64,000 bases of DNA, from NCBI GenBank assembly GCA_963777505.1, contig CAVZQN010000004.1:1760001-1824000 (forward strand), given 5' to 3'. The notes beneath the pieces were generated by a model, which had not been told where the DNA came from, searched no databases, and saw nothing but the letters and a program-made list of their open reading frames with translations. Made by a program: the position numbers and the translations under genes. Within the stretch, counting starts at the first letter, position 1; each line of letters starts with the position of its first letter. Shown piece by piece: positions 24,622 through 55,737 of the stretch. The DNA is from an uncultured bacterium (GTDB lineage Bacteria; Acidobacteriota; HRBIN11; JAKEFK01).

Positions 24622-26144
24622 ATGAAAGTAATCTTATTCGTCCCGCCGGGAGGCTATTTCGCTGAGCGCTGGAGTCAGGGCTCAACGATGCCGAACCTGG
24701 GTATTTTATATATTGCCGCTGTTCTTGAACAGGATGGTGTTGAAGTTCAGGTCATACCTGCAGACGTGTTAGGGATGACTTTTGAGCAGATAACAAAAAT
24801 TATCCTGGATGAGAGACCGGATGTCGTTGGTATCACCGTTACGACAGAAAACAGGTTTGACGCATTCGAACTAGCAAAAGTTTCGAAACAAGTTCTCCCT
24901 TCAGCGATGACAGTCATTGGTGGTCCGCATTGCACGCATACCGCCGATGACACTTTAAAACATTTACCCTACGTCGATGTTGTTGTTCGAAATGAGGGCG
25001 AAGAAACGATGTCTGAATTGGTAAAAGCAATTCAGGCGGGTGGCGATCTCAGCAAAGTTACTGGAATTTCTTATCATGATTCGGAAGGAAATACGGTTCA
25101 TAATCCTACACGCATTTACATTAAGGATCTGAATGATCTTCCGTATCCCGCGCGTCATCTTGTACCTTTGGATAAATACAATTTCCAGATGGATGTTCCA
25201 GGCCATGGATTCCTTCCAGCTGCGTCCGTAATAACAAGCCGCGGCTGTCCCTTCTCATGCACATTCTGCGCTACTCCTGGAAATTGGGGAAGAAAAGTAC
25301 GCGCACATACACCTGAATATGTGCTTGGATGAAATTCAGTATTGCATGGATACATATGATGCAAAGGCAATCTGGTTTTACGATGACATCTTTAATTTCA
25401 ATCCAAAAAGGGTGAATGAGATTTGCGATATGATCCTGAAACGCAAGATGAACTTCAAGTGGTTCTGCGAAATTCGCGTGGATGTTATGACGAAACCGTT
25501 GCTTGCAAAAATGGCAGAGGCTGGTCTTGTTCCATCTTGGATTTGGTGTTGAAGCGGGTTCGGAACGCGTTCGAAAGCAGATCATCGATAAGAAGCTTGA
25601 TTTGGATCAAGCACGTAATGTTGTGGATTGGAGCAATGAACTTGGTGTTGTACCAAATCCATTCTTTATTTTCAGTCATCCAACTGAAACGTGGGAAGAA
25701 GCGCAGGAAACAATCCAGATCATGGAAGAGTTCAGGGATAAGACGGAACAGAGTATTGCGATTATGCACGTTTATCCAGGAACGCCGCTTGAAAAAACAG
25801 CCCGCGAAATGGGACTTCTACCACCAGATTTTACGTGGACGCGCAAATATGATCGTCGCATTATTACATTGCCGGCGGCGCAGGGAGATGTCCCGCTGTT
25901 TATCGACAAACTGACTTGGTGGCAAATCAGTGAATTGTTGTTCCGGTGGTCCGATTTCCGAAGAAAGAAATACCGTATCTGGAACAAAATTCCTAAAGCG
26001 CTGCAGAGCATTCATAGCTATGGAGATTTCAAGCGATACTTCATCATGTTCCTTGTATATATGAAGGTGAAGGTGCTTGGTCAATTCGCTACAAGTCCCA
26101 AGGTGAGCTCAATTCCAAACGGTCCTACCGCTTTTAACGCATAA
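24622..26144 (+). CDS. B12-binding radical SAM protein (frameshifts near 25328 and 25530)
   Basis: PNLGILYIAA, GGPH, EGE, TSRGCPFSCTFC, YDDIF, GVEAGS and YPGTP across three ORFs. Confidence 0.9.
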
Positions 26145-30144: not shown

Positions 30145-30215
30145 AACCGCCAAGACGCCAAAGCGCCAAGAAAATTCTTATTTATCTTAACTTAGCGTCA
30201 TGGCGGCTTGGCGGC
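30145..30215. repeat. Inverted CGCCAAG 8/9-mer repeats at a convergent junction
   Basis: ACCGCCAAGACGCCAAAGCGCCAAG and CTTAGCGTCATGGCGGCTTGGCGG. Confidence 0.65.
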
Positions 30216-31307
30216 TGAGTTCGGATTTCAGATCCCGGAAAGTAATGTGAAAGAATTTCCGTAAATGAAAAACCCTTCGCAGCTAAAATGTCTGCTCCAG
30301 TTTGACAAAAACCAACTCCATGGCCTTGTCCTCTTCCATGAAAAACATAACCATCTGAGGTTTGTGTCATCTCATAACTGTTGCCTGGTAGTTTGTTCCA
30401 TCCATAAGCTTGGCCAAGTCTTGTGCGAAAAACTTCCATTGGGAATTGCTTTTCTGTACTTTGAGTTGAAACGACAATCTTGTTAGCAACGCGATGCAGT
30501 TTTGCATTTGGAAATCCGCTGATCGCAGTCAACTCTTCAAAACTTAGAAATGTCTGCCACGGCGGCAATGCCTTAATACAAGGACAAGATACGGCTGTAA
30601 ATTCGTATGGCTGCGATTGTTCACCCCATGCATCTTTGAATGTAGCCGTTTGTCCACCGCAAGATCGCGAATAATAAGGCTTGAACAATTGATCGTGGTA
30701 CGTTAAAACGAGCGATGCGCTTTTTTGAACCGCACGTTGTATTTCAGGTGAGGGCTGGAGATTCTGAAATACCTGACAATGTGTTGTATCGCAAAAATCT
30801 GCATGTTTTTCGGGATGACGTCCACCTTCACTTAAGAATGACCTGCTTACAATTGCAAATGCCTCGATCGCTTCCGGCTCTTGAACCCCTCTTAACTCTG
30901 AAGAAATAACAGAACCTACAAAATCTTCGCTCGACAGTCGTAGTACTATACTTATAGTACTATTATAGAAGTGAAATTCAAACTGGCCGGAATAAGCGCG
31001 ATCCATTTTGTCGTCGATTTGAATCTGAACTTTGCAGACCTCGGGACAATCTAGCGAAAGGCGTTCTCCTGAAATCATGGAGGACTGCAGCGTTCGATTA
31101 GCTGCGCGAAGCTCGAATGTTTTGCCTGAAAGGATCGGCATCTCTGCGATCAGAATTGCGCAGCATTCCCGTGGCAGGCGACAGCAACGTCAAGCGAATT
31201 TGACGCGGTTGCAGGAGCGATAAGATTGAAACACGAACGTTCCGTTGATCAGAGTAAGCGATCACAGGGAAAAAAATGACGAACAAAAGAAAGCTTATTC
31301 TAAGCAT
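30182..31307 (-). CDS. SpoIID/LytB-domain secreted protein (frameshift near 31145)
   Basis: Signal peptide MLRISFLL; VISSE, CDTTHCQVF, SCGGQT, GRGQGHGVGFCQ, ILSHYFPG. Confidence 0.88.
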
Positions 31308-31315
31308 AAAAAGAA

Positions 31316-32257
31316 TTATCGGAGCGCGACTGTTTTCGCTTTGAATAACTCCAACCATGCAGCCAGGGCTCGTCCGCCATTTGGCGCCGCATCACTCGCG
31401 CCGCGTCCGTTTTGGACAAAAGTCATAATTGCAATATCCGGATCATCTGCAGGATAGAGCCCGATCCACCAACCCTGAGTGCGCGAGTAATCGGTTTTGC
31501 CATTCACGATCATCAATGATGTTCCCGTTTTACCAAGCATTTCGACACCTGAGGCACTTCTGGCAAGGCTTGACGTTCCATACATGGATCCTTCCAACAA
31601 TCCTTTCTGGATTAAAGTGCGAATCTCAACAGGAGGTACATATGATTTTCTGGATTGTGTTGCATCAGCTAACTTCCAGAGTGTTCCGCCATTAAAGATT
31701 GAGGAATACGCCCGCAGTAGTCGGAGCGGAGAGACTTTCCATTCCATCGTTGTTCCGGTCATGGCTTTGCGAATGAGTTGTGGGTTGTTCAAGCCTTCAC
31801 TTTGTTCGGATATTCCGAACTCTCGCAATACATCGATAAAAGTTTCTGTTGAGGTTTGTGCAGCCAGTTGCCGAAAATAAACATTGCACGAAAATGCCAC
31901 GGCTTTTTGGGCATCGACTGTCCCATGACCATTTCGATCCCAGCATCCCATTGAATCTCTTGCAGCAGAAGGCGGGCAATGGAATTCCGGAAATTTGCCT
32001 TCATGATTTTGTGCATACGCGATGAGTGTAAAAATTTTCATTAACGATCCAGGTGGATGCTTTTCTTTCAGGATGGGATTGGAGTTCAAAGAAGCTAAGA
32101 GAGTTCCATGATTTGGATCGATCATCACTGCAGAGCAGTTGCAGTTCTGTAATCGCTTCTCCAGGAGTTTTTGCAGCGCGGGGTTTTCTTGCGCACTTAA
32201 GGGAGTTAGAAAGAAAATGATCATGAATACAATCAGAAATTGGTTAGCGTACTTCAT
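31316..32257 (-). CDS. Stand-alone penicillin-binding transpeptidase-domain protein
   Basis: Signal peptide; PGSLMK (SxxK), SCN (SxN), KTG; ~313 aa with no transglycosylase domain. Confidence 0.88.
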   Translation of the reverse strand: MKYANQFLIVFMIIFFLTPLSAQENPALQKLLEKRLQNCNCSAVMIDPNHGTLLASLNSNPILKEKHPPGSLMKIFTLIAYAQNHEGKFPEFHCPPSAARDSMGCWDRNGHGTVDAQKAVAFSCNVYFRQLAAQTSTETFIDVLREFGISEQSEGLNNPQLIRKAMTGTTMEWKVSPLRLLRAYSSIFNGGTLWKLADATQSRKSYVPPVEIRTLIQKGLLEGSMYGTSSLARSASGVEMLGKTGTSLMIVNGKTDYSRTQGWWIGLYPADDPDIAIMTFVQNGRGASDAAPNGGRALAAWLELFKAKTVALR

Positions 32258-33920
32258 AATGAACAACTTCCTCATTTTCAGACTTTTCGATGGTTGATTT
32301 CTTAATTGAGTACAGAGCCTTGAAAAGACTATCCAGATTTCCGGAGAAGAATAATGGTTCTTCGCCGCTGTAGGAGCCATGATCCAGGCGCCGCATCAAT
32401 CGTGAATATTTCCATCTGCCTTTTTCCCAATCAATTTCAACGAACGAAGATTGCGGTGTTGATAACTGCGCAGGAAGAATAGCGGCGCTTTTGTTCAGGT
32501 CCGTTTCATTGTTCGAAATAATGACCCATGGTTTTTGAAATTTAACGTAAATCGGATTAAGGGAATGAAGTGTGTGGGTGCCATTATTATTGCGACTCCA
32601 TACGGCTCCGTTTTCTCCGGCTGATGTCAGAAGGAGAAAGTAGGATTGGAGTTGATCAAGCAAATCCTGCTGCTGAAGTGAATCAAAATTTTCCAACAGA
32701 AGAATTTGAGTTTCCTGGAAGTGTAAAAAGAGCCCATCCTTATCCCAAATCGGAGTTCTAAGTGTGATTGATGCTGTTGGCTTGGAAGAAGTCAGAAGGG
32801 AAGTAAGAACCTTCGGTTGCTCGGCTTGCAAAATCTGAACATCCGCAGGCTGCAATACAGGCGCATCAATGTGCACCAAATAAGGGCTCTTGAGTTCGGC
32901 CTGGCTCGCGCGCTCAAAAGATGCTGAAAATGCAGGCGGATAGGAAATTTCCTTTTGATCTTCCGGAAAACGGTTCAGCATTTTCAAAATTGATTCTGAA
33001 ACGCTGTCTGGATCAGGCAACGGTTGGATGGAGAGGTAGTCGGCTGTTAGATTTCGAAAAGGCTTAGCCCAGTCACTCGCCTGTAAATTTCCTGGAGTTC
33101 CATTTTCTGAAAGAGCAAAATATCGATGCTCAATCAGTCCATTTCGTTCGGCCAGGAAATCAATCCACGCAGAACGGATCTTAGAAAACTCTTTTGCATT
33201 TTGATGAATCCAATATTTCTTAAAATACCTGTTGCTGTTCAATGTTTCCTGATCCAGATAAATTGAAAATAATGAAGGTGCTGTTTTTTCCGGATGGCAT
33301 GCCTTCCATTTTTCAGTTCCGGCAAGTGTCGGCGCTCCATTTTGCTTTGTGGCATTCGTCAGGAATTCTTCAAGCAGTGCTGATTCGGTGCTGATTACCA
33401 GGAAAGGTTTTGAATATGCGAATGATAATTTCCCTTCATCAGGGTCGATGTAATATGTCTGTCCGCCGAAATTTCTTTCCTTGAATTTTGCTCGTGCAAT
33501 CCAGAGTTCGGTTAACGAGGCATCTGCCTGAGAGATTTCTGTTGCAGCCAGTACCTTCAATTCTCCGATGTCGTAAACAGCAAGCGCAGAACGTTTTCCT
33601 GAAAGTTTAATAAGATTGTCCAGTGAAAACTGAACTTTCTCTCCAGCAAAATCGTTGATACGTTCTTGCAGCCGCAGATATAAACGTGAATTTTGAAAAA
33701 TTTTGTAGTTGTCTGTCTTTTGCCAATCCGACTTCATTGAAGAATTCTTCCACCAGATAAAGAATTCTTTCAGGTTTGGTGATTCCCAATAAACGATCGC
33801 GTTTGCTGGAAAAAACTCTGCAGGCGAAGGAGTGCCTGGATCCATCAGTTGAGCCGCAACGATTCCAGAAATTACAAGCAATCCTAAGATAACCGCAGCG
33901 CGCAGCTTCTTGTTTTTCAT
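32244..33920 (-). CDS. Hypothetical exported or membrane-anchored protein (~558 aa)
   Basis: Basic-hydrophobic N-terminus MKNKKLRAAVILGLL; overlaps both neighbours. Confidence 0.75.
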   Translation of the reverse strand: MKNKKLRAAVILGLLVISGIVAAQLMDPGTPSPAEFFPANAIVYWESPNLKEFFIWWKNSSMKSDWQKTDNYKIFQNSRLYLRLQERINDFAGEKVQFSLDNLIKLSGKRSALAVYDIGELKVLAATEISQADASLTELWIARAKFKERNFGGQTYYIDPDEGKLSFAYSKPFLVISTESALLEEFLTNATKQNGAPTLAGTEKWKACHPEKTAPSLFSIYLDQETLNSNRYFKKYWIHQNAKEFSKIRSAWIDFLAERNGLIEHRYFALSENGTPGNLQASDWAKPFRNLTADYLSIQPLPDPDSVSESILKMLNRFPEDQKEISYPPAFSASFERASQAELKSPYLVHIDAPVLQPADVQILQAEQPKVLTSLLTSSKPTASITLRTPIWDKDGLFLHFQETQILLLENFDSLQQQDLLDQLQSYFLLLTSAGENGAVWSRNNNGTHTLHSLNPIYVKFQKPWVIISNNETDLNKSAAILPAQLSTPQSSFVEIDWEKGRWKYSRLMRRLDHGSYSGEEPLFFSGNLDSLFKALYSIKKSTIEKSENEEVVHYEVR

Positions 33921-36900
33921 GATTCTCTCCCCAGATTTGGGCCGACCTTCCATCGTCCGGTTTCTTCGAGAGCTGCTTCGGCTGCAGTTTTTTCAACCTG
34001 TGTAATCTTTTCTTGAATCCTTTGTTTTTTATTCATATCAGTTTCAATATTCATCGCAAGATGCAGGAAAAAAATCTGCCTTGTATAATTGCGAATTTTT
34101 TCTGCGCAGTCGGAAGCTTCTAACGCAAGCTGCAGGCTTTCCTGGTCTGAAAGATTTAGGTTTTTGATAGGATAATTTTGGGTGCGATCGTAACGATCAT
34201 ATTCGCCATAGTATTCGTCTCCATATCCCCCTGAATCTTCTTCGGTTTCCACATAATTTTCTTCGGACACATTTTCCGGATCCAGCGCGATTAGAGCATT
34301 CTCACAAAGTCCAGCATTTTTGTAAGCACGGAAAAGAGGCACTTTCAGCATTGTGCTCGCAGGATTTACATAGAGCTCGCTCAGCAGTAATTTTAGATTC
34401 TGATTCTGATTCTGCTCGAGTAATACTTCGCGCAAAGCTGTGTAATGTATATTTGTGTACGACGTTACCTTTTGATTCCGAACAACTTTTTCAATCTCTT
34501 GCATTTCAGGAGATCCCGCAAGAAGCTTGCTCGCTTTTCCGTAAACTTTTGCTGCCCGAATTTTATCCTCAAGCGTTGCTATATTCAGTTCAAGAATGCG
34601 TTTCGCTTCTAATGCCGCTTCTTTGTTTTTCTTTAATTCAACGTAATCTTCAGACAGCGCAGCTTGATTCGTTGAATCCCACGGTTTGCGCTTGAGGAGT
34701 TCTTCTCTGAACTGAATTGCATCCTCCAGGCGGTCATGCTTTTCCAAAACATTCGCTGCGAGATTAAAGCGCTCAGGATCTTCACTTAGTCCATAAATCA
34801 TCCGCTTTAATAAATGCAGTGCATCGTCGACTTTGTTTTGATCCAGGCGAATTTCTGCAAGGCCGATATAAAGCGATGAATCTGTTGAGCCGGAAGTTAA
34901 TTGTTGCTCATACAGTTCTTCCAGGATCAAATTCGCTTCCGTTTTCTTTTGTTCTTCCTGTAATAGTTCTGCTGCCTGTCGATATTTTTCTTCGTTCAAG
35001 CTGACGTTTTCATCGTCCTGTTGTTTGCTATAGCTACCTCGTGCAAACTTCTGCAGCAACTCAACTGCCTCTGAAGTTTTGTTCAATCGAAGGAGAGTCT
35101 TTGCATGAAGTAGTATGAATTCGTCAAAATATTGATTTTCGCTTTCAGTCGTCTTTAATTCTTCAAGCACTTCTGACGTGATGCTTTCGGCAAGATTCAC
35201 TTCGGTCATTTCCAAATATTCTTTTGCAGCTTTCAGATTCCATGAAGCCCATTGATTGCGTGCAAGTTCAATTTCCTGCCCTGAAGAAGAACGCATCCAC
35301 GTCTTCAAGTACGCTGCGGTCTGTTTCAAAATTGCAATACGATCTGCCGGTTCCAGCTTTCGAATGCGAAGTATTGCTGCAGAAAACTCTTTCGGTGCTG
35401 GAGCTGATGAAATCCATTTCGAGATCACTGCCTGTCGTTTTTCGTTTGGAAGTTCAGGTAGATATTCGGTGATTAATGCAATTTGAAGCGCACCATTCTT
35501 TTGAATGTCACCAGACAGAAAAGATTCAATATCGCCATGGACGCTATCCAGAAAAGTATGCTTCGATGCGGCTCGCAAAATAAGCAGGTAACGTTCGCTT
35601 GATGGAGGTGTGATCAAACTCTTCCAGATTGCAATTGCTTCTTCTTTTTTGCCAAGTGCAACGAGAGCTTCTGCGCGATGATCGGCATAGTAAATATTCC
35701 CAGGTTCAAGTTCAGTAGCAAGATTGAAGTGGTGCAGCGCTGATTCAGGCATATCTGTCAGATAGTACGTTCCAAGTTCGTCCTGATATTCGCCACGAAC
35801 CGGAGCGCCTTCAATATCGGAAAGAAGATAATAAGTCGCCTCACTCCTGTTTCCCGTGTTCCACAAATATTCACCATAACGTGTGCCATAGAAAAACCAA
35901 TCATCACCGGAAACTGCTAGTGCTGAATCAGCTCGGGTTTCGAGTTGATCCGCTATTGAACGAAGATCCAGTCCATTTGAAAATAATTCACGAACAAAGG
36001 GTTCGTTAATGTTGAGTTCTTTTGCCAGCATTGCAGACTGAATCGTTTTCCACACAGGTTCTTTGGTTTTTGCGAGAGACTCGATTGCAATGAGTGCACA
36101 TTCTTGATCTTTCTTTTTCACAAAGAAGTTTGCGACTGTGAAGTTCGCTTTGGTCGCTGCGCTTCTTAATTCATTTCGCAGGTTTCGTTCATAAAGCAAA
36201 GTCAGATAGCGCTCAATCGCTTCGGGTGTGGGATTCTGATGATTCACAACAGCAATGTTGAAGTATTCCCTTAATACGACAAGTTCTTTGTCAGTCATTT
36301 GAGCAAGTCTGTATGCATAAGCGGCTTCAACAAGATCATAGTCATGGTAATAGTTTGATTTTCTTCTTTTCCATTCTGTTTCAAGGAATTTCCCGCAGGC
36401 AGCGTAAGCATGACGATCGAGGTAGAATCGCTGTAGTTGTTGCCGATCAGAACGATAGTTCCCCAGTGTTCTGTCATATGAATTCGCTAGTAACCCTTGC
36501 AATAATTGTTCTTCTGCGCGAGCCATTCCTGCGGCATGTGCTAAAGGTAAGAGTCTTTCTCTTTTTAGCTGGGTCTTATAAGTCGCAGCATGAGTTAACA
36601 AGGCAGTTTCCAGTTTTTCGATTTCGGTACCCGTTAAATATTTTCTTACGCTGAGAGGGAAGGTTCGGATCAGAGTATCCTGAATCATGTATTGATTGGA
36701 ACGGAGCGCTTCATCCGCAAATGTTGCCTTGACTCGCGCTTTATCCAATCGATTCAGAGTTTGCACCATTATCTCAAGTGCAGCCGGCGCAGAATTCGTT
36801 TGAATCATCGCTTCCATATATGCTGCAAAACCTTCAGATGGTATCGATTGAGTTAGATCTGCCCGAAATTCCTTCATGCCTGCGTTGCCGTATGCAACTG

Positions 36901-39900
36901 CGCTGGCTGGCATTCCCCAACTCAACGCTTTCGCTGACATCATGAACTGGCGCTGTAGTAGAGAACGTGGCTCAATATATCTTTCGTACAACTCAAGAGC
37001 TTTCTTCTGGTTTCCTAAACGCGCTTCTAATTCCGCCATTGAGCCAAGCCAGTTCGTATCTTTGTACGTTAATGCATACAGTTGCTCATACGTTTGAATG
37101 GCTTCTTTATATTGCCCGGCTCTTCTGTGTGCATCCGCCAGGCTCTCATTTAAATCAACGCGTTCCGGACGAATCGCAATTGCAGCACGAAAACTTGTAA
37201 TGGCATCGGCAGGATTTCCTGAATCCAGATAAATTCTGCCAAGCATCATTGGCCAGCGATGATCTTTCGGTGAGGCCGCCGCAGTCTTCTGGTAATACTC
37301 GATCAGGCGCGGTGTCAGTGCATAGCGCGCCGCAAATTCTGCGCTTTCCCGGACAAGACTTTCATTTTCAGCATCACGATTGAGAAGTTCAATATATTGA
37401 TCGAGCGCTGCAGTGTAATCTTTTAATATGAGATTTGCTTGAATGATGCCTCTTCGCATCGAAGCGATCTGTTGCTTTTTCTGATCTTCAGAAAGCTTTG
37501 AATCACGAACAAGCTGAAGGCCTGCGCGATAATGTTCGACCATTGATTTGTAATTGCCTTGTTCCGCGTAAATCTCAGAAACGAATTGAAACAAATCTGC
37601 ATTCAGTGGATCATCCTTACGCAACTCTGCGACAGATGTGAGTGCACGGTCGTACAGTTTTCTTTCGCGATAACGTCCGGCGACTTCACGCAAAAAGCGT
37701 TTTCTGAATTGAGAATTTGCGATTGAAAGAGCCGAGTCGTAAATTGCAAAGGCTTTATCGTAGTGTCCATTTCGCCAGTAGAACAAAATCAGGTCCTGGA
37801 TCAATCCATGGCTTGAGGGTTGCTTCTTATAAAGAGCAACGAGAATCGATTCTGCTGCTTGTTTTTCTCCACGCGAATCATAGAACCTGGCAAGTTCAAG
37901 ATTCAATGTAATCCGTTCAAGATCGGATGAAGCATATTGAATTTGCTTTTGAATGATCATCACGTTCGCGGAATTAAATCCGAATCTGCGAGCCGTGTTT
38001 GCTAGTGAACTGGAAATTTCTGCAAATGATTTAGGCTGTAACGTTTCTATGGCGCGTGTGAGATATTGCATCACAGTATGTTTTTCCTGCTGTGTGGAAT
38101 AAAACTCAATCACGCCGGCCCACCATGTTGAATCCTGCGGGTTTTGTTTGAGTTGTGTGTCGAGATGCGTGCGGATCAATGCGGCGAGACGCGGCCGCTT
38201 ATAAAGTTCAGTCAGCCTGTTTCTCGCTTCTTCTGATTGCGCGATCAGGCTTTTACTATATTCAGCAACAGCCGCTTCGTAGTTCCTTTTCGATTCGTAA
38301 ATCGCGCCTGCTTCGTAAGCATAGAGTGACTCCGAGGCCTGAATTGAACGCGCTCTCTGAATTAAGTTCAGAGCATCATCAAACAGGTAGTAATCCCAGA
38401 GAATTGTGGCGACTTCCAGATATCGTTCGGGATTTTGCGGATCCGAACGGATAATGTTCTCCCAGTTTTCTTTTGCTTCTGTGTATTCTTCGATTTCTGC
38501 AAGTGTTTCGCCCGCGGTAGTCCATAGCGCAATGTCAGAAGGCGAAATTCGCGCGAGATGTTCCCGAATGCTAGCTGATTCAGCGTAGAAAGATGGATTC
38601 TGCCACGCGAGTGATCGTTTCAAATCAGCAACACGTACATTCAACCATCGGTCTGAAGAATATTTCGCAGCGAGATCTTCATATAGTGGGACGGCTTCCG
38701 AATAGTGTGAATTCCAGACAAGAATGTCGGCTGCAAACAGTTTTTCAGGATTGGTGGTTGGGTTTGCAATATCTCTGGAGGTTCCGTTAGCACGATAATT
38801 GAAGAAGTTATATTGCTGCCGGATCGATTCATCCAGAAAATAATATTTCCGACAAAGTTCGTGCCAGACCGGGGGCCTTTCTGACCCGTTCGTTACATAG
38901 GCTTCCAGTAAATTGTTTACAAATGTAAGGTTGTACGGAAAGCGGCTTAAGGCGTACTCGTTGATTGCAATCTGAAGCGATCGATAGGGTTGCGGATAAT
39001 GAACACTGTTGATGTATTCGGCCACTTCAGTCCCGGCAAATAGATCCACAATTTCACGGGAGATTTTTTCAAATTCACCTTGCTGTTCGCGCCTGATATA
39101 CCATCGTGCAAGTTTTTCGTACCAACTTCGGGTCTTGAATTGTTTGATCGCTTCTTTGTAAACACCCGATTCTTCGTCAAACAAATTATTTTGAGCAAGA
39201 TAAGCGGCGAAATCGATATACAGCATTTCTTCAGAAGGATGTTGCTGAAGCTGATCGCGATAGAGTCTTAGAACTCCCATGAAATTCTTTTCACGAGTTA
39301 AGCTTGCAATGTAACGCTTTAGCAAGGATTCATATTCGAGTGACTGTACAGGCTGCGGCGTAGATTCGTTCTCGTATTCTTCTTCCTCTTCTTCTTCATA
39401 ACTCTCCGAAGGTTGCTGCGGCGGTGCGAAGAGTTGCTGAGCGTTCCTTTTCGAAGCTACGCCCAACAAATAATCATACGTGCGCCATTCATTGCTGTTG
39501 TCTTTCTTTCGCGCGTATGCCTCAACAACTTCAGTTCCAACATGAATGAGCTGTCCTGAATTTGGAAAGTTGCGGAAAAAATCTTCGCCAGTCTTAATGA
39601 TCAAATCATCCATGCCGTACTTCTTATAGATTTTCAAAACATCGTAATACATGGCAGGCAGATGTTTTGAAGATGGATATTCTCGCTGCGTAAGTCTTAC
39701 GATTGCGCCGGCTTGAGCGCGATTAAAATATCCGATCGCTTTTGTTTCCTGCAAAGAAAACTCGGATTGTGGATCCGTGCCATTTAAAATTAAAGAAAGA
39801 ATTCCATTGAACACACCAGGTGAAGCGTCGGCCTTTGCGATATCTTTGTAAAAATCCAAATTTCCAGAGCCAATCTGAATGGGACGTTCTTCCGCTGTTA

Positions 39901-41051
39901 TCAAAATTTGAAATAAGCCATACAAAGCATCATCACTTGCAAGCGTGGTATATCGCTTTGCCTTCACGTTTTGATGCAGCGCTCCGTACAGGGCAAAGTA
40001 AAAACGCGCAGACTCATTGAGATTTAGAGCTCTTTGATGCAGCTGCGCCATCACCCACAGCTCATCGGCATTCCATTGTGATTTATTTTCTCGAACGCTT
40101 TTTTCTTTCAGCAGCCGAAAATCATTTAAAACGGCAGCGGATTCAGCGGTATTTCCTGCAAAGTAATATGAATGGAATAAACGGGTGGCAGCATCAAAAT
40201 CTAAAGGATCCTTTTTGAGTTTTTGGCTGAGTGAAGCAAGATATTCACCTTTTTTTTCCGCCCGGATCGCAGCCGCATCAAGCGCTCTTGCCAGTTCAGT
40301 ATCCCAGAGGGGTTCGTAACTCTTGTTCAACAACTCAAATGCGATTGCGGGTTCAACAAGCCGTACTTTATTCAATAGATACGTTGTTTTTTGCTCAGGA
40401 AATTTCTGCTGGTAGAGTTCTACCAATTCAAGTGCATTTGCATTTGAATCGTTAGCAGATGCGCCAATCGATCCAATCCTGTAGTGCTTTTAAAGACTGC
40501 GGATATTTTTCCGTAATGATCTTGTAAATGGCTTGTGGATCTTCGGGGAGTTTGTAATTTGCACGATGAGCTAGCGCACGATGGTAGTGAGTATAGGGTC
40601 CACGGTTGTTTTCAGGATCCATGGGATCGGCAGGTTGTACGTTTGCATGGTTCAGTATTTCTTTGTACTCGTCATGGAATCGCAGCCGTTTATGATAGAA
40701 GTTTTCCAGAGCGTAATAAGCAGAATCTTTATCCGTTGATTTTTCCACGAACTGTTTTATATGGATTTCAGCCTGCGCGAAATCAAGCAGTTCAACTTCA
40801 ATATCTGAAAGCGCTTTAAGCAAAGAAATATTTTCGGGCTGAGTTTGAATCAATGACGTAAGTTTTTCCCGCACTTCCTGGGGAGTATTGGGAACAATTG
40901 CTTGCTCACCTTGAAACGATTCCTTGTGATAAAAGGCCTGTGCGATTGGATCGCTTTCGCGCAAGTCGGATGGCACAATCGCGAAAACAATGGACACAAG
41001 CAATGTAAGCGGTATTACAGAAATAGATTTCAGTAAACGAATGGCGTTCAT
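33917..41051 (-). CDS. Giant exported TPR protein (~2380 aa; frameshift near 40460)
   Basis: 208 aa ORF with signal peptide joins the 2169 aa ORF via SANDSNANALELVEL; many TPR-like helices; acidic tracts; TGATG coupling. Confidence 0.85.
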
Positions 41052-43411
41052 CAATACACTTCCACTTTTCGCGACCATCGGCTGATGTTGTGTGCGAAAT
41101 CTTCACCAATCACTTGAAGTTCATAGACGCCGGCAGGCAAATCGTCGGGCACAATGATGTATCCAACGGAAGCTTTCTCACGGTTGTCCCATTGAATTTT
41201 TACAGGACGTGTTCCTTCTAATTTTGCATAAATATGGCGCGTATCTTGATCAGAATGGACCAGAAGTTTTACAGTGCCTCCGCGCTGAATTGTTCCCTGC
41301 CAGCGAGCTGTAATGACTGGAGGTCTGCTATCTACAATGAATGATTTCTTTTCGTCATATTGATTGCCCATGCGATCGCGCAAAATTAAACGGCAAAAGT
41401 ATGTGCCATCTGAAACTTCTTTAGGAACAAGAAAGCGTGTTTGCCAGATTTCTTCTGAAGGCAGATAGACAAGATTTTTCACAAGGCCAAACGGGAAAAT
41501 GGCTCTTACTGAAACGATATCGGGATCTGTTTTCACCCGAAGTAATGGATCGCCAGGCCGGATCGCGCGCGGCCGCAGCAAAGATCGAGGGGCAGCAAGA
41601 AATGAAGTGTACGGCGTTACAAATTTATACTTTTTTGCAAGCCTGATGATTTCATCGATGCTTGCTGCATCTTCACCTTCCAATTCAATTTTGCGTAGGA
41701 GCGCATCCACACGCATTCTGGCCCATCCGCGTGGAATAAAGGTGTGCTCTGTTGCAGATTCTGGAAAATCGACTGTGCGTTCCAGTTTAAGGTCTTTGCC
41801 TGCAAGTGTGCCGGTGGCAGAAATTCTAACGGCCGAAGCAGGAGATCGATATCTGCCGAACCAATCTTTTGATGAGCCATCGTAAACGCGGCCTGGTTCT
41901 GAAGGGTACACGTTATAAAGCAGATCGGGGGTGGAGGAACTCAGCAATAAATTATGCGCAGGCTCTTGTCCAATTTTTGAGAAGAATGCGTGAAGCTTGA
42001 AAGTTAAATCCTCCGTTTCGCGGACCCAATCAAAAGTGCCGTTGCTCCGTTCAGCAATTTCGGAAAGTAAAGTACGGTTCGTATCGGATCCGATTCCAAA
42101 GCAAAAGGCCCTCAGCGATGCGTTTTGATTTCCTGATGTGAAGTGTTCCAAAAGCTTTTTCGTTTGTATTTGAGTGAGGGTCGGATTTCCATCAGTCAGC
42201 AAAATCAGAAAGCGGTTCTTATGTTTGAGTTTGTTTGCGCTTTCAAATGCAGTATCCAATGCTTTCCGGAAGTCCGTGCCGCCCATCAAGTATTGTGACC
42301 GCACAAATTGCAGGGCTTGCGCTATGTTTTCACGCGTGGCAGGAAGGGGAGCTTCACTTGATGTTTTTGTTTCCTGGTGAAACAAAATCAATTGGAATTC
42401 ATCTTGTTCACGCAAGTTTTGTAAGAAATATTCCAGTGCTGCAAATGATTGTTCCAATTTCTCCCAGCGCATTGAAGAAGATGCGTCCAGCAGGATTAAT
42501 AAAGAACGCGGATTTTTTTCATCGACAACTCCGCCTTCGTTCAGCACCGCGGAAGTCCAAAAATAACCATCCTCTACTTTGCCGGTCGAAGGTTTTTCAA
42601 AAGCTGTGATTGTTTGACCTTCGGTTCGTAATGCAGAATCGGCTCCGCGAAATGCAAGAAAAGATAATTCGCTTTTTTTCGTATCCAGTCTGTATTGGAA
42701 GGCAAAATCTTCATTCAATGTAAGTTCACGCGCTTCAAACGTTCCTTTCCATGCGCCGCTTCCTTCAGGATTCATTTTCAATGGATAAAAACTGGAAATT
42801 AATTTAAGGTCGGCGATCGGGATGGTGCTCAGCAGTTCAAGATCCAGTGAGAAGTAGCCTGTTTTTTGTTCCCGGAATAGATCAGGTTTCAACGGCAGTG
42901 AGAAATACGATTGTGTTCCTTGTAAATCGATGCGCTGAGTGTATTCAATTTCAAGACGCTTGGTTCCATAGGCAGGGATTGGAACAATTCGCGCTGAAAA
43001 TGCACTTGCCATGCGTGCGCCTTCTTCACCTTCATCCTGTTGAAGTAAACCTGGATCGATGACCTGCATTTTCAACGATTCGTAAATTTCTGACGCTCTT
43101 TTCCGTTCCAGAATTACGCCCGGGATCCGAACCACACCGTCCCATACAGCAAAATCGGAGATGGCTGCATCACCCGGAATCGCGAAAACATATTTGCCTT
43201 CCTGCACCCGATTCGTATGATTGCCAAAAATCTGAGTGATACGGACACGCGCATGCTGATGATCTGCGCGAATATGGACCATGACTTCATCGAGCGTAAG
43301 AATCGATGGATCGGGTTCCTCGCGATCTCCCGGAATTACGACTCCGACGTCAGCAAAGACAACCGCTGAGACGAGGCTAGCGAAGATCAGGAATAGTACT
43401 AATTTTGTCAT
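41051..43411 (-). CDS. Exported VIT + vWA domain protein
   Basis: Signal peptide; VIT (QIFGN...EGKY...GLLQQ), MIDAS DASSS, LLTDG, FGIG, VTPYTSFL, beta-rich C-terminus. Confidence 0.9.
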   Translation of the reverse strand: MTKLVLFLIFASLVSAVVFADVGVVIPGDREEPDPSILTLDEVMVHIRADHQHARVRITQIFGNHTNRVQEGKYVFAIPGDAAISDFAVWDGVVRIPGVILERKRASEIYESLKMQVIDPGLLQQDEGEEGARMASAFSARIVPIPAYGTKRLEIEYTQRIDLQGTQSYFSLPLKPDLFREQKTGYFSLDLELLSTIPIADLKLISSFYPLKMNPEGSGAWKGTFEARELTLNEDFAFQYRLDTKKSELSFLAFRGADSALRTEGQTITAFEKPSTGKVEDGYFWTSAVLNEGGVVDEKNPRSLLILLDASSSMRWEKLEQSFAALEYFLQNLREQDEFQLILFHQETKTSSEAPLPATRENIAQALQFVRSQYLMGGTDFRKALDTAFESANKLKHKNRFLILLTDGNPTLTQIQTKKLLEHFTSGNQNASLRAFCFGIGSDTNRTLLSEIAERSNGTFDWVRETEDLTFKLHAFFSKIGQEPAHNLLLSSSTPDLLYNVYPSEPGRVYDGSSKDWFGRYRSPASAVRISATGTLAGKDLKLERTVDFPESATEHTFIPRGWARMRVDALLRKIELEGEDAASIDEIIRLAKKYKFVTPYTSFLAAPRSLLRPRAIRPGDPLLRVKTDPDIVSVRAIFPFGLVKNLVYLPSEEIWQTRFLVPKEVSDGTYFCRLILRDRMGNQYDEKKSFIVDSRPPVITARWQGTIQRGGTVKLLVHSDQDTRHIYAKLEGTRPVKIQWDNREKASVGYIIVPDDLPAGVYELQVIGEDFAHNISRWSRKVEVY

Positions 43412-45305
43412 ATGATATCTGTAATATGCCATGATCTGTTCCTACTATCACCGAATCCTCGCCTTGTGTGAAAGCCGTCACATTTTTGGAAGGAAGTCCT
43501 TTTTCAAAATGCTTCCATGCGTTTTTCGAAGGATCATATGTATAGAATCCACGATCCAAAGTTCCGCAAAAGACCTGACTTCCGTTTGAAAACAATGCAT
43601 TTGGATTCACTTCAAAATCTTGTGGCAGGGCTTCAAATTGAATCCAATCTCCTGATTCGGTCCGGGCCTGAACTCCGCTTCCATAGGTGCCAACGAGCAA
43701 TGTACGATCCACATTCAAAAGCGCATTCACCCAGTTCCGTTTCAATCCGGAATCTACCTGTGTCCAGCTTTCCTGAACGCTGAGATCTCGCAAACGTGAA
43801 ATCCCTCCCAGAGTTCCCAGGTAAATTTGGTCGCTTTTAGCTGCAATAGCGTAGACATGATTGTTTACGAGTCCATGAAAGGCAAAAATCGATTTCATCG
43901 CTTCGCCTTCTTTTAATGTGAAACCTTGAGTTGTAGCGATGGCAATCCGTTTGCCATCAGGATCCAGGGGGATCGCTTGCATAACACGATCGCTAAGAAG
44001 ACCATCACGTTCCCGAAAGACACGCCGATTTCCTTCCGGACCGATGATCACAAGACCATTTGCTGTAGACACATAAATGTTGCCGGATTGATCAGCAGAA
44101 ATGTGATTGATAAAGGAGAGCGTTTCGTCATGCAGGTGTGAAGAAAAATTCAGCGATGCATCCAAAATATCGATGCCATGATCAAAATATCCAACCCACA
44201 ATTCACCATTCGGAGCAGCAAGCAAGCTCGAAACATTGGAGTCGGTTAGTGTAGAAACAAAAGCGTTTCCCCATGGCTGCCATCTTCCTGATGACATGCT
44301 CCAAAATTGTGTGCGGCCAAAAGCGATGAGCGTATCGCCAATTCGTTTGATCAAAACTCCATTTTCTTCCTGAGCTGGCAGTGAAGCGGCTAAGATGGGA
44401 CGTCCCGGACGCACAGTTGATTTCGTTTTTAGAAGGATCAGGCCGCGATCTTGTGATGATGCCCAAATTGAATCACGATCCGGCTCAAAAGAGGATACAA
44501 ATAAATTTTCTGCAATGCTTTGGAAGCTTTGTCCGGAATAGGATTGCAACCCGCGAGGTGTAGAGACATAACAGCCTGCAGGATTCGAATGAATATCTGT
44601 GATCATTGGATCGAGCAGGCCATCGCCGCGATCAATATGATTCAGAGTCCCGCTTTCGTAAGCAAAAATTCCTGAGTTAAATGTTCCGATATAAAGCCTA
44701 TGACTTTCTCCTGCGATGCGCGCAATCTGAATTCCTTCGAGTTGAGATGGATAAAATGGTTCGAATCTGGTTCCGTTGTATCGGATCACTCCAGATGCAG
44801 TGCCAATATAAAGCTCACCATTTGATGTCGAAAGCAGGGAAGCGATTTGGCGATGTTTTCGTCCGCGTGGAATGAATTGCTGCCAGATGCCATGAGCATA
44901 TCGAATTAATCCATTGTTTCGCGTTCCAATCCATAGTTCGCCGTTCAAAGAAGCAAGAGAAGTTAATTCAGGTTCTGGAAGGCCATCGGCTGCTGTAAAT
45001 TTTTGGAGAACTTTCCCTTTAGGATCAAGAATTAACAATCCATCTGAACCAACAACAAAGATCTTGCCTTCGAATTCGAGAGCATCATTTGCATGAAACG
45101 GACCCGATATAAGCCGGACTCCGGGGTTTGGAGCGAATTGAAGAGTACGGAGTTCAACTGACAAGACTCTGGATTCGTTAAATCTTTGTTTCTCTGCTTG
45201 TAAAACGGTTTGAGCGCGGCGAATTGAAAAGAAAGTTGCAGTAGCAATTGCAATCAAGACAAGCAAGATTGCTGCTGTTAGGATTCGGATTTGTTTCCCC
45301 TTCAC
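43377..45305 (-). CDS. Membrane-anchored beta-propeller protein (two-component regulator propeller type)
   Basis: N-terminal TM; repeats such as DGLP, LWIGT..GL, LYIGT, VGTDHG; no kinase domain. Confidence 0.85.
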   Translation of the reverse strand: MKGKQIRILTAAILLVLIAIATATFFSIRRAQTVLQAEKQRFNESRVLSVELRTLQFAPNPGVRLISGPFHANDALEFEGKIFVVGSDGLLILDPKGKVLQKFTAADGLPEPELTSLASLNGELWIGTRNNGLIRYAHGIWQQFIPRGRKHRQIASLLSTSNGELYIGTASGVIRYNGTRFEPFYPSQLEGIQIARIAGESHRLYIGTFNSGIFAYESGTLNHIDRGDGLLDPMITDIHSNPAGCYVSTPRGLQSYSGQSFQSIAENLFVSSFEPDRDSIWASSQDRGLILLKTKSTVRPGRPILAASLPAQEENGVLIKRIGDTLIAFGRTQFWSMSSGRWQPWGNAFVSTLTDSNVSSLLAAPNGELWVGYFDHGIDILDASLNFSSHLHDETLSFINHISADQSGNIYVSTANGLVIIGPEGNRRVFRERDGLLSDRVMQAIPLDPDGKRIAIATTQGFTLKEGEAMKSIFAFHGLVNNHVYAIAAKSDQIYLGTLGGISRLRDLSVQESWTQVDSGLKRNWVNALLNVDRTLLVGTYGSGVQARTESGDWIQFEALPQDFEVNPNALFSNGSQVFCGTLDRGFYTYDPSKNAWKHFEKGLPSKNVTAFTQGEDSVIVGTDHGILQISYDKISTIPDLR

Positions 45306-45580: not shown

Positions 45581-45609
45581 TACGAACAATGTGCTACAAT
45601 CTGAACCTT

Positions 45610-46374
45610 ATGAACGGTATCATCCTCGAGGTAAACAATCTCTACAAGAAGTATGGTGACCTTGTTGCCGTTGATCACATTTCTTTTGGAGTTGCGCGCG
45701 AAGAAATTTTTGGAATTCTTGGCCCGAATGGCGCAGGCAAAACCACAACCCTGGAAATCATTGAAACACTTCGTCCCATGGATGGCGGCGAGATCCATAT
45801 TGATGGGCTGAATGTTGCGAAGCAGCCCCGTGAAGTAAAGCGTAAGATCGGCGTGCAGCTTCAATCATCGTCCTTCTTCGATCAACTGAATCTGACCGAA
45901 TTGCTGCTACTTTTTGGGGAAATGTATGGAAGGAGAGTGGATCCAGCTCAATTGTTAAAGGATGTTGAGCTTGAAGATAAAGCTCGCGCAAAGATCAAAG
46001 TATTGTCCGGTGGACAAAAACAGCGTTTCTCAATTGCGGCTGCTCTGGTTAACGATCCGATCGTTCTTTTTCTTGATGAACCGACAACAGGTCTGGATCC
46101 TCAAGCGCGCCGCCATCTTTGGGGAGTCATCCGTCGCATTCGTTCTGAAGGAAAAACAATCGTTATCACCACACATTACATGGATGAAGCAGAAGAATTG
46201 TGCGATCGTGTTGCAATTATGGATCGTGGAAAAATCATTGCGCTAGAACAGCCATCGGAATTGATCAACTCTTTGTTGGCAACGGGCTTTACAAAACCAA
46301 GAACTGAACGGCTTGCGACGTTGGAAGACGTCTTTCTAAATATGACAGGTCATTCACTGAGGGAAGAGGAATAA
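45610..46374 (+). CDS. ABC-2 type exporter ATP-binding protein
   Basis: GPNGAGKTT, LSGGQKQR, LDEPTTGLDP, TTHYMDEAE. Confidence 0.95.
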   Translation: MNGIILEVNNLYKKYGDLVAVDHISFGVAREEIFGILGPNGAGKTTTLEIIETLRPMDGGEIHIDGLNVAKQPREVKRKIGVQLQSSSFFDQLNLTELLLLFGEMYGRRVDPAQLLKDVELEDKARAKIKVLSGGQKQRFSIAAALVNDPIVLFLDEPTTGLDPQARRHLWGVIRRIRSEGKTIVITTHYMDEAEELCDRVAIMDRGKIIALEQPSELINSLLATGFTKPRTERLATLEDVFLNMTGHSLREEE

Positions 46375-46378
46375 AGAG

Positions 46379-47443
46379 TTGAGGTTGAAATTCAAGTTAC
46401 TCATTGCCAGCCTGAAGATGTTTTTCCGCGAAAAGGAAGCCGTATTCTGGACCTTCTTTTTTCCGATCTTCATGATTGTTCTTTTCGGATTTGTACGCTT
46501 TGATTCTTTTGGCCGTATTGAAGCTGGGATTGTGAATCTTGCCGGGCCTCAAGGAAAGGAAATTATTCAGCCACTAGGCAAGATTGAAACGATCCGTCTG
46601 CATGAAGGTTCGAAGGAATCGGAAATGGTTTCACTTTCCAAAGGCGAACGTGATCTCGTGATCGTTATTCCCCAGACATACAGCTCTGGTTCAAACGGAA
46701 AAGTTGAAGCGTATCTGAATGATGCAAAGCCTCAGGAATCGCAGCTAGGCCGGCTTTTAGTTCAGCAAACTCTCGATCAGTATGCATTAAATAAAACAGA
46801 TACGGCACGAACAACTCTTGAGGCGCGATCCGTTCGCGGGAGAAAGTTGACTTACATGGATTTTCTGGTTCCAGGAGTGCTGGCGATGTCGATTATGCAG
46901 ACTGGCGTATTCAGTGTCGCTTTTGTATTCGTCGATCTCAAAAAGCGCGGGATTTTAAGACGGCTTCGCGTTACTCCAATTAATCCAAATGATTTTATTG
47001 CGGCCCACGTAGTGACACGGTTGATTGTCTTGATGATGCAAATCGTTTTGATGGTGGTAATCGGAATGCTGTTTTTTAAGTTGCAATTTTCAGGCAATCT
47101 GTTGAATTTATTTGCGGTTGGAACTTTAGGTGCAGTTGTTTTTCTCGCGCTGGGATTTGCGGTTGCAGGAGTTTCCAAATCAGAGGATCAGGTTGCGCCG
47201 CTTGCAAATATGCTTGTGTTTCCGATGATGGTGCTTTCAGGAATTTTTTTCAGCCGCAGCAATCTTCCAGGTTTCGTTTATTCAATCACAAATTATTTCC
47301 CACTGACATATTTGGCTGATGCAATGCGCAGTATTGCTATCGATGGCGCCAATTTAATCTCTGTTGGTCCACAAATTATCGGCCTTACAGTGTGGGCTAT
47401 TATTTCTTGCATCATAGCAGTCAAAATGTTTCGCTGGGAATAG
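46379..47443 (+). CDS. ABC-2 type permease
   Basis: FWTFFFP, YMDFLVPG, LSGIFF, PLTYLADAMR; about six TM segments. Confidence 0.92.
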   Translation: MRLKFKLLIASLKMFFREKEAVFWTFFFPIFMIVLFGFVRFDSFGRIEAGIVNLAGPQGKEIIQPLGKIETIRLHEGSKESEMVSLSKGERDLVIVIPQTYSSGSNGKVEAYLNDAKPQESQLGRLLVQQTLDQYALNKTDTARTTLEARSVRGRKLTYMDFLVPGVLAMSIMQTGVFSVAFVFVDLKKRGILRRLRVTPINPNDFIAAHVVTRLIVLMMQIVLMVVIGMLFFKLQFSGNLLNLFAVGTLGAVVFLALGFAVAGVSKSEDQVAPLANMLVFPMMVLSGIFFSRSNLPGFVYSITNYFPLTYLADAMRSIAIDGANLISVGPQIIGLTVWAIISCIIAVKMFRWE

Positions 47444-50507: not shown

Positions 50508-51903
50508 TTATTTCGAATATAAATCAATAATTTGAGACAGTGTCTCTTCACATACTTTGCAGAATGGAACATCATTTCTGCTAAACATAATACAGTCTGC
50601 TTGCGGACGAAAATAACCGCGAGCTTCATAATTGGCTCCTTCGAACGCACCTACATTCTTAGCATACTTCTCTTTTGCTAATTCTGCAGTTTCGTGGTCT
50701 TTTTGAGTCTGAAACAACGCATCCATTTCTGATTCTGGTTTATTTTGAGCGCGAATCTCTCGTCGTTTCTTTTGAATCTCACGTGAGTAATTCTCAAATT
50801 CTTGCTTATTCCATGGTGTTGGAATCGGAGTTGCTTGCGTTACGTGTTCATTCCACTTGAGGCTCTTCGGATCGAGTAACGCAGTCACATTCGGTTCCCA
50901 TGGTTCCACACGATCTGTAGACGATTCATATGCAACATCGGAGGTGTAGTATTCATCAGCAAGAGCCGCGAAATGGTGACCGAATTCATGTACGAAAATG
51001 TAAGGTGCCCAAAGGCTATCTGCAGAAACTGTTCCGTACAGACCAAAAATTCCGCCGCCTCCATATGTCTTTTGATTCACAAGGATTTCGACAAATTCAT
51101 AAGGCGCATGTGATGAGATGTCTCTAAACGATCGGTTGTCAAATGTTAGAACATATCGCTCGGATCCGAATGCATCGTAGGTTGTTCCAACTGGTGAACG
51201 GCGATGCGTTCCTGTGGAAGGCCGTCGAGACACCGCTTTCAGAAGATTCAGGACATAAGCCCCAAACATTGAAATCGGCGCGGCGTTCTTTAAAAGGCGA
51301 AACACTGAATAGAATTTCAATCAATTTCCGTGCATCTTTTTCAAACTTGTTTCTTTCTGCAGCCGTGTAACCATCGCCAAGAATCAAAAAATCTACCTTA
51401 TTAGAAGGATCGCCTTTTTTCTCAAGCTCAATCAGTGGGCCTGGTGCGGGACTCTTTGATCGGTCGATGAAGATGTCGGTTGGATCAACAATCGTTGACC
51501 AGACTTCACGGAATGCATTATTTCGGTCACGCTTTTTCAAAACGATTTGAGCTTTTGAAGATGGAGCAGGGAAGCGCAGCGATTCATGAAACGTTTTATG
51601 CATCTGTCTGGCTTCAGAGGTTGTTTCCCATTCTCCATAAATTGAGGCAAAACCGCGTGAATAAAGGACACGATTGTTCGTTCGATCAATGACTTCAAAA
51701 ATATATTTACCGAGGTTTGTATCATCGATGGGATGATCGGGATTCCCTGGCCAGGGTAATGGCTCGACAACGATGCTATCAAGGCTGAAAAATTCCTCTT
51801 CAGCATTTCCTGTATGGTAATAGTTCAATCGCATGGTCTCAGGAGCTGCTGAAACAATCGCTGCAGCAAGGAGAAAAATGACAGCAAAGGACGTAATTTT
51901 CAT
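50508..51903 (-). CDS. Secreted M64 (IgA peptidase family) metallopeptidase (frameshift near 51220)
   Basis: Signal peptide; LGDGYT, YGGGGI, HEFGH...LADEY, CIM...FCKVC. Confidence 0.92.
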
Positions 51904-51925
51904 AGGCAACATTAAACCATAAGTC

Positions 51926-55600: not shown

Positions 55601-55737
55601 ATGACGACTGGAAAATCTACGCTTGGCAGATAGGCCAACTTCATGCGCGTAGCAGCGATCGCACCAAGCACAACGATGCTGGCTAAAATAACAACTGTTG
55701 TAATCGGTTTCTTGATCGCGAAGCTGGCGAGATTCAT
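52653..55737 (-). CDS. RND efflux permease 2 (frameshift near 55455)
   Basis: MNLASFAIKKP, GMLVDDAIVVLE, NGIVLID, RLRPILMT. Confidence 0.92.

Follow-up and report, generated by a model that had tools for sequence, protein, structure and literature searches.

We analysed a window of 64,000 nucleotides from the genome of an uncultured bacterium (GTDB lineage Bacteria; Acidobacteriota; HRBIN11; JAKEFK01; GenBank assembly GCA_963777505.1, contig CAVZQN010000004.1, positions 1,760,001 to 1,824,000 of the forward strand), and studied one operon of envelope proteins which runs on the minus strand from window position 45305 down to 30182. We propose tentatively, with a little less than even confidence, that it is a conserved and apparently undescribed envelope operon of Acidobacteriota, which was assembled from two evolutionary modules and serves to guard the periplasm and repair the cell wall. 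Module A consists of a propeller protein, a protein with VIT and von Willebrand factor type A (vWA) domains, a giant tetratricopeptide repeat (TPR) scaffold and a DUF3352-like anchored protein. Module B consists of a lone transpeptidase and a SpoIID protein.

All genes from the propeller to SpoIID were found in the same order in other families of the phylum at 22-40% identity (genomes G024, G028 and G082), and more divergent copies with the TPR, DUF3352-like, transpeptidase and SpoIID genes were present in G118, G161, G378 and G394. The related loci were labelled as Acidobacteriota: Blastocatellia, Bryobacterales, Terriglobia and Chloracidobacterium. Neighbours were counted in 79 loci anchored on the VIT-vWA gene, and the counts cover loci with enough flank (at least 2.5 kb for the propeller, at least 4 kb for the TPR gene). 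The propeller gene was upstream of the VIT-vWA gene in 55/60 loci and the TPR gene downstream of it in 62/65 loci. The DUF3352-like gene came after the TPR gene in 48 of 52 loci, and was itself followed by the transpeptidase gene in 20 of 22. An initial annotation of this DNA had set beforehand a test by which missing synteny in other genomes could refute the operon; because synteny of the cluster extends to distant Acidobacteriota, the test did not refute it. Our literature search, with bioRxiv supplements and subscription journals outside its range, found no description of the operon, nor of an alpha-2-macroglobulin (A2M) together with SpoIID.

The transpeptidase and SpoIID form one module, and they are fused in divergent operons and in 119 of the best 120 listed Blastocatellia-type proteins. 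The two genes were one in-frame open reading frame (ORF) in all three divergent operons (G161, G378 and G394), with SxxK, SCN, KTG and the SpoIID glutamate kept. Relatives of the fusion numbered 1018 proteins at E<=1e-10, and both Pfam domains were found in those 119 proteins. Among 80 fusion-related loci (L141-L220), the 47 with at least 6 kb upstream were counted. An A2M gene was directly upstream of the fusion on the same strand in 46 of these 47 Blastocatellia-type loci, and a polytopic membrane ORF of ~285 aa, belonging to no family, was directly upstream in 47/47. The fusion protein has ~890 aa and carries at its C-terminus a further HExxH domain, which was conserved in 12/12. A macroglobulin is served by the wall module in this sister lineage. 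The conserved Blastocatellia/Pyrinomonadaceae operon is composed of a thioester A2M, the ~285 aa membrane ORF and a transpeptidase::SpoIID::HExxH protein. The initial annotation had linked the operon of the window to A2M systems, and the fusion of the two enzymes elsewhere, together with its place behind a thioester A2M, is new support for this link.

Module B is an optional module for module A. Among 15 loci anchored on the DUF3352-like gene, the TPR gene was upstream in all 15 and the transpeptidase gene downstream in 7. Transpeptidase and SpoIID were not found past the DUF3352-like gene in the remaining 8/15, mostly labelled Blastocatellia, two of which had less than 4.2 kb of downstream flank. 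Therefore, module A can work without module B in cis. In G220, no transpeptidase or SpoIID match was present in the 13 kb past the DUF3352-like gene of its operon copy, and a fused transpeptidase::SpoIID gene was located on a different contig behind an A2M with a CTEQ thioester motif (L140, G220:C3:255000-270000). In four Blastocatellia-type copies scanned, an S8 subtilase of 1025-1205 aa was encoded on the same strand past the DUF3352-like gene after a gap of ~0.5-2 kb (L022 13138-16677; L028 12380-15997; L030 13657-17097; L027 12818-15895), with a weak MAM-like match at the C-terminus in 3/4. Such loci would suit an explanation in which two independent systems share one transcript, the transpeptidase-SpoIID pair being a self-contained wall enzyme which hitch-hikes behind different large envelope operons. 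The explanation appears improbable to us, as the two modules were adjacent in 20/22 loci with room, and also in operons so divergent that the DUF3352-like protein was barely detected there, and as the genes of the operon studied here overlap or are 8 nt apart.

Operon layout and reading frames

Seven ORFs of 208-2169 aa were arranged head to tail on the minus strand:

43377-45305, minus: propeller gene, 642 aa, Reg_prop E 2.9e-14
41051-43432, minus: VIT-vWA gene, 793 aa, VIT 1e-17, VWA_3 2.1e-20, VWA 2.2e-15
40452-41078, minus: N-terminal fragment of the giant TPR gene, 208 aa, no Pfam or NCBIfam family
33917-40426, minus: giant TPR body, 2169 aa, 16 TPR-type Pfam families
32244-33953, minus: DUF3352-like protein, 569 aa, no named family
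31316-32380, minus: lone transpeptidase, 354 aa ORF, PF00905 8.9e-32
30182-31307 (319 aa ORF at 30182-31141), minus: SpoIID/LytB-type lytic transglycosylase, PF08486 1.6e-15, TIGR02669

Neighbouring genes overlapped, except that SpoIID was spaced 8 nt from the transpeptidase gene. The N-terminus of every product reads as hydrophobic (signal or anchor). The initial annotation had described six co-oriented and tightly spaced genes with anchors or signal peptides. Its domains, spacing and hydrophobic N-termini agreed with our analysis, but it overlooked that the TPR and SpoIID genes are split by frameshifts.

In the giant TPR gene, a one-base frame change lies within 40446-40478, and the 208 aa ORF is the membrane-anchor part of this gene. 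The gene was uninterrupted across the junction in locus L002 (same genus), L017 and L016, and it was one long ORF of 2420 aa in L002, 2359 aa in L017 and 2426 aa in L013 of G028. The SpoIID gene starts with an ATG at 31307, 8 nt past the transpeptidase stop; this start and the signal peptide are read in one frame and the 319 aa ORF in another, and the frame changes within 31132-31157. The L002 orthologue of SpoIID was a single ORF of 392 aa. Elsewhere in the window, an M64 peptidase gene (50508-51912), a B12-binding/radical-SAM gene (24622-26144) and genes of AcrB-type pumps (52653-57803) were also split or truncated into adjacent ORFs. Because the orthologues are intact and these unrelated genes are split likewise, the frameshifts in the TPR and SpoIID genes are probably assembly indel errors, which seem to be frequent in this assembly. 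If both frame changes were real, the two genes would be pseudogenes and the operon would be decaying in this organism, and it fits such decay that neither change is in a long homopolymer. We consider decay very unlikely. Assembly indels would be expected to split unrelated genes as well, the operon showed no further stops or deletions, every catalytic motif is preserved and the orthologues of the same genus are unbroken.

A divergent ABC-2 transporter pair (ATPase and permease, window 45589-47443) was considered as a part of the operon and rejected: it was conserved within the family only (in G003) and missing from G024 and G028. As the genes on either side vary outside the family, the propeller and SpoIID genes were taken as the ends of the operon.

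Gene products

The propeller protein is a membrane-anchored protein of the "two-component regulator propeller" type; it carries no signalling domain, and its N-terminus is hydrophobic (ILTAAILLVLIAIATATFF). It matched periplasmic sugar-sensor domains of Bacteroides hybrid two-component systems with phmmer (3v9f 1.4e-14, 4a2l 2.2e-12, 3va6/3ott 5.8e-11).

The VIT-vWA protein is of secreted type and passed the Pfam cut-offs (VIT 64.7 vs 26.5 bits; VWA_3 73.8 vs 27), and its C-terminal part is Ig-like. With vertebrate inter-alpha-trypsin-inhibitor heavy chains (ITIH) it has in common the architecture of VIT and vWA with a metal-ion-dependent adhesion site (MIDAS), as already recognised in the initial annotation. 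Against solved structures it matched ITIH4 (9c4f) with E 8e-25 over residues 51-613 and ITIH1 with 2e-17. The MIDAS residues D316/S318/S320, T386 and D414 were invariant in 5/5 orthologues, which bears out the annotated MIDAS. The one-genome-per-species contigs contained at least 680 relatives of the VIT-vWA protein. The protein also matched the "marine proteobacterial sortase target" family TIGR03788 with E 6e-59, but at 200.1 bits, under the cut-off of 551.65. No sorting signal was visible at its C-terminus, and family scans of the operon and its flanks revealed no sortase. A sortase-target system was ruled out on the low TIGR03788 score and the absence of a sortase family from the operon and flanks. 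Bat (aerotolerance-type) operons encode membrane-anchored vWA proteins together with a MoxR ATPase and DUF58 proteins. Neither an AAA/MoxR nor a DUF58 family was present on the operon ORFs or their neighbours, and a Bat-type vWA/TPR operon was also ruled out.

The giant TPR protein has ~2,380 aa once the N-terminal fragment is rejoined, and it is membrane-anchored. Its best Pfam match was TPR_14 (2.2e-20), and NCBIfam gave generic TPR matches only, all under cut-off.

The 569 aa protein, which is either anchored in the membrane or exported, had no Pfam match at E<=10, and DUF3352 was not among the 5 families listed across 12 family members. Language-model features put two family members near the DUF3352 and DUF2138 clusters. 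A true DUF3352 (PF11832) paralogue exists in the same genome (C3:450442-452280; L035 907-2745), and a DUF3352 profile was built from its relatives. When a 151-sequence profile of the 569 aa family was aligned to it with hhalign, the probability was 70.7% and E was 3.8e-5, with 387 columns aligned colinearly. With a DUF2138 profile of 99 sequences, the family reached 2.1%, or 39% with model secondary structure added, and no match was found in global mode; the DUF2138 and DUF3352 profiles compared with each other gave 2%. The DUF2138 Pfam model PF09909 had no match in this genome nor in 301 sampled Acidobacteriota genomes. By profile comparison, the 569 aa protein appears to be a remote relative of DUF3352.

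Predicted models of the 569 aa protein and of E. coli YfaA (562 aa), compared through their nearest solved structures instead of by direct superposition, had the same best match, TP0453 of Treponema pallidum, which is half the length of the 569 aa protein. TP0453 is a membrane-inserting lipoprotein. A further nine VIA-align matches were common to both models (4esq, 6e8a, 5zxa, 3lyd, 4tmd, 7cu8, 6e5d, 1vr8 and Mog1). The two proteins are of near-equal length, each has an N-terminal helix, and the order of strands and helices is similar. Judging from these models, the 569 aa protein may share its fold type with YfaA. The likeness of this protein (558 aa in the initial annotation) to YfaA/DUF2138 concerns its size, the helix at its N-terminus, the succession of secondary-structure elements and the solved structures closest to its model; detectable sequence homology was limited to DUF3352.

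Among 1.84 billion cluster representatives, 1080 matched the 569 aa family at E<=1e-3, and ten of them that were looked up were all unnamed or "hypothetical". It was present in 35/401 sampled genomes of the phylum, belonging to 23/227 genera. In G160, the family gene is preceded by a GAF-SpoIIE phosphatase gene.

The transpeptidase has a signal peptide and a likely start at 32275 or 32257. PF00905 was its sole family (110.9 bits vs cut-off 22.1), without pedestal or glycosyltransferase domain. Its SxxK (SLMK), SCN and KTG motifs agree with the initial annotation: S75/K78, S126-C127-N128 and K234-T235 were invariant in 11/11 orthologues, one of which has KTS. A conserved C..CWxxxGHG motif was also found in the orthologues. 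The closest solved structures were the transpeptidase domains of class B penicillin-binding proteins (PBPs), namely PBP2/MrdA/SpoVD. A class B PBP is defined by the N-terminal pedestal (PBP dimerisation) domain, which couples it to a SEDS polymerase; the protein had no match to a pedestal family and scored 96.5 against the cut-off of 455 for pbp2_mrdA, and it was not placed in this class. The PBP_1c model TIGR02073 gave 16.9 vs cut-off 494. There were seven PF00905 loci in the genome; the one of the window was the only short one, and the other six reading frames had 571-836 aa.

The SpoIID protein matched TIGR02669 (3.6e-42, 145.2 bits vs cut-off 83.3) and PF08486 (57.9 vs 23), and its matches among solved structures were 4rwr (6.9e-36), 5i1t and 5txu. 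The catalytic glutamate, which the initial annotation had pointed out, was invariant in 9/9 orthologues. The transpeptidase and SpoIID thus both retain their catalytic residues. A second SpoIID gene, encoding 583 aa with an N-terminal SPOR domain, was located ~23 kb beyond the window end (C4:1846847-1848598; L222 6848-8599), and it is probably a housekeeping septal enzyme.

Relation to macroglobulin operons

No A2M family was found on any of the seven operon ORFs, as the initial annotation had stated for this locus. The only PF00207 match of the genome was a thioester A2M ~1.57 Mb away on the same contig:

C4:185551-191385 (L221 9552-15386), minus: A2M of this genome, CTEQ, 1944 aa

This A2M gene had no PBP or SpoIID neighbour, and a DAO-type oxidoreductase and a rhomboid protease were encoded downstream of it.

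The operon resembles the Mag/yfa operons of the type II A2M complex (P. aeruginosa magABCDEF; E. coli yfaA-yfaT-yfaS-yfaQ-yfaP) in being a compact operon of periplasmic proteins with a single very large exported protein at its centre, in having an anchored protein of ~560-590 aa with N-terminal helix (YfaA with 562 aa there, the 569 aa protein here), and in having a SpoIID-domain protein (YfaQ there). Pseudomonas MagB is described as inner-membrane anchor and stabiliser of the macroglobulin MagD (PMC5764988). MagB has 64 kDa and a single transmembrane helix at residues 26-48 (PMC5764988; PMC3735191, Table 2). Size, helix, gene order and DUF2138 matches in Pseudomonas suggest that MagB corresponds to YfaA/DUF2138, and sizes, gene order and COG names suggest that MagE corresponds to YfaQ. 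E. coli YfaQ matched the SpoIID family PF08486 at 27 bits with a cut-off of 23, so its description as SpoIID-like was correct. The operon differs from Mag/yfa in that it has no macroglobulin, and DUF1175 (YfaT/MagC), DUF2135 (YfaP/MagA,F) and DUF2300 (YfaQ/MagE) were not found on its ORFs; PF06672 did not match anywhere in the genome. Of YfaQ, the SpoIID part alone is represented here. Mag has nothing that corresponds to the propeller, VIT-vWA and giant TPR proteins or to the true transpeptidase domain.

E. coli yfhM (ECAM)-pbpC, the type I macroglobulin pair, is a case of a very large periplasmic protein co-transcribed with a wall enzyme of penicillin-binding type (PMC5764988). A very large periplasmic protein and such an enzyme are also present in our operon, but the large proteins are VIT-vWA and the TPR scaffold instead of A2M, and PBP1c has a glycosyltransferase domain which the transpeptidase here does not have. 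The A2M variant of Blastocatellia has the same enzyme pair of lone transpeptidase domain and SpoIID, but its HExxH domain and its polytopic 285 aa partner are both absent from the window. With the sporulation machinery SpoIID-SpoIIM-SpoIIP (DMP) the operon shares the SpoIID family with its catalytic glutamate and a peptide-acting partner. However, the host here is a non-sporulating diderm, and a PBP-type transpeptidase takes the place of the SpoIIP amidase/endopeptidase as partner. SpoIIM was not detected on the operon ORFs in the family scan.

Because the defining macroglobulin and most of the partner families are absent, the operon is not a member of Mag/yfa or yfhM-pbpC. Gene for gene, it maps onto neither of them, nor onto any other system that we could find. 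We describe it best as a variant of the macroglobulin-type envelope operons which lacks the macroglobulin and has a four-gene core without a described counterpart.

Possible function

The sequences show the parts of the operon, their order, conservation and associations, and we infer that it may have a function in defence or repair, similar to the breach-sensing complex on a TPR scaffold which the initial annotation had put forward. Most economically, its products would form a complex on the periplasmic side of the inner membrane, to which it is anchored. The large soluble VIT-vWA protein may be held there by the TPR scaffold and the DUF3352-like protein, in the way that MagB holds MagD in Pseudomonas. 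The VIT-vWA and propeller part could then capture or sense a ligand, either an intruding protein or exposed glycan, through the MIDAS and the sugar-sensor-like propeller, and the transpeptidase and SpoIID would cut and re-crosslink peptidoglycan at the site of the ligand. The VIT-vWA, TPR and propeller proteins would thus occupy the place which the macroglobulin has in A2M operons.

Several results weigh against this proposal, in addition to the loci where module B was missing past the DUF3352-like gene. In the closed 3.7 Mb genome G160, no TPR or VIT-vWA match was found within 20 kb upstream of the gene of the 569 aa family (L044/L045, C1:1968000-2003000). The sequence homology of the 569 aa protein to DUF2138 was not significant, its likeness to YfaA comes from an indirect comparison of models, and the TP0453-like fold gives no certain functional clue. 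The window transpeptidase scored 70.9 bits to the A2M-linked fusion and 64.3 bits to its own PBP2-like paralogue, so that orthology to the fusion is not established, and the conserved Cys motif also differs. SpoIID was clearly closer to the fusion (122 vs 58.5 bits). The two frameshifted genes are broken in this assembly. Module A also had no element like a protease bait or a thioester.

The last point fits also with a machine for wall morphogenesis or matrix anchoring which has no role in defence. The TPR and propeller proteins would then position the enzyme pair for local remodelling of peptidoglycan, for example when a large envelope structure is inserted or tethered, and VIT-vWA would be structural or adhesive cargo. 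Members of the SpoIID family are reported to act in developmental or septal wall remodelling, including the chlamydial SpoIID (PMC6635528). The propeller resembles glycan-binding sensor domains, and the related VIT-vWA family TIGR03788, matched at 200 bits and below cut-off, is annotated as sortase target and would so be attached to the wall. We find this explanation rather unlikely. The patchy spread of the 569 aa family (35/401 genomes, 23/227 genera) is more suitable for an accessory than a core function, the genome already has the six longer PF00905 reading frames and the SPOR-SpoIID paralogue, and 46/47 loci of Blastocatellia type link this enzyme pair to an A2M.

The proposal of a guarding and repair unit can be taken further, though we regard the extended form as doubtful. 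Module A might form a second periplasmic surveillance device independent of A2M, which would have recruited the type of anchor and the transpeptidase/SpoIID repair module that bacterial A2Ms also have. The ITIH-like VIT-vWA protein would be the capture element, and it could be fixed to peptidoglycan by the lone transpeptidase, like ITIH heavy chains to hyaluronan.

To our knowledge, bacterial macroglobulin operons are the only described systems of "periplasmic innate immunity". The operon of the window keeps the macroglobulin-type partners (a YfaA-like/DUF3352-like anchor, SpoIID and a penicillin-binding domain), and three other large proteins replace the macroglobulin. It is common in a major soil phylum, and therefore offers a natural swap experiment on the role of the partner module. 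It also provides a testable context for a large unnamed protein family and for DUF3352, and shows the lone transpeptidase with SpoIID to be a recurrent, often fused, two-enzyme wall module. If surveillance independent of A2M is true, A2M systems would belong, as one case among others, to a broader class of modular complexes that guard the envelope.

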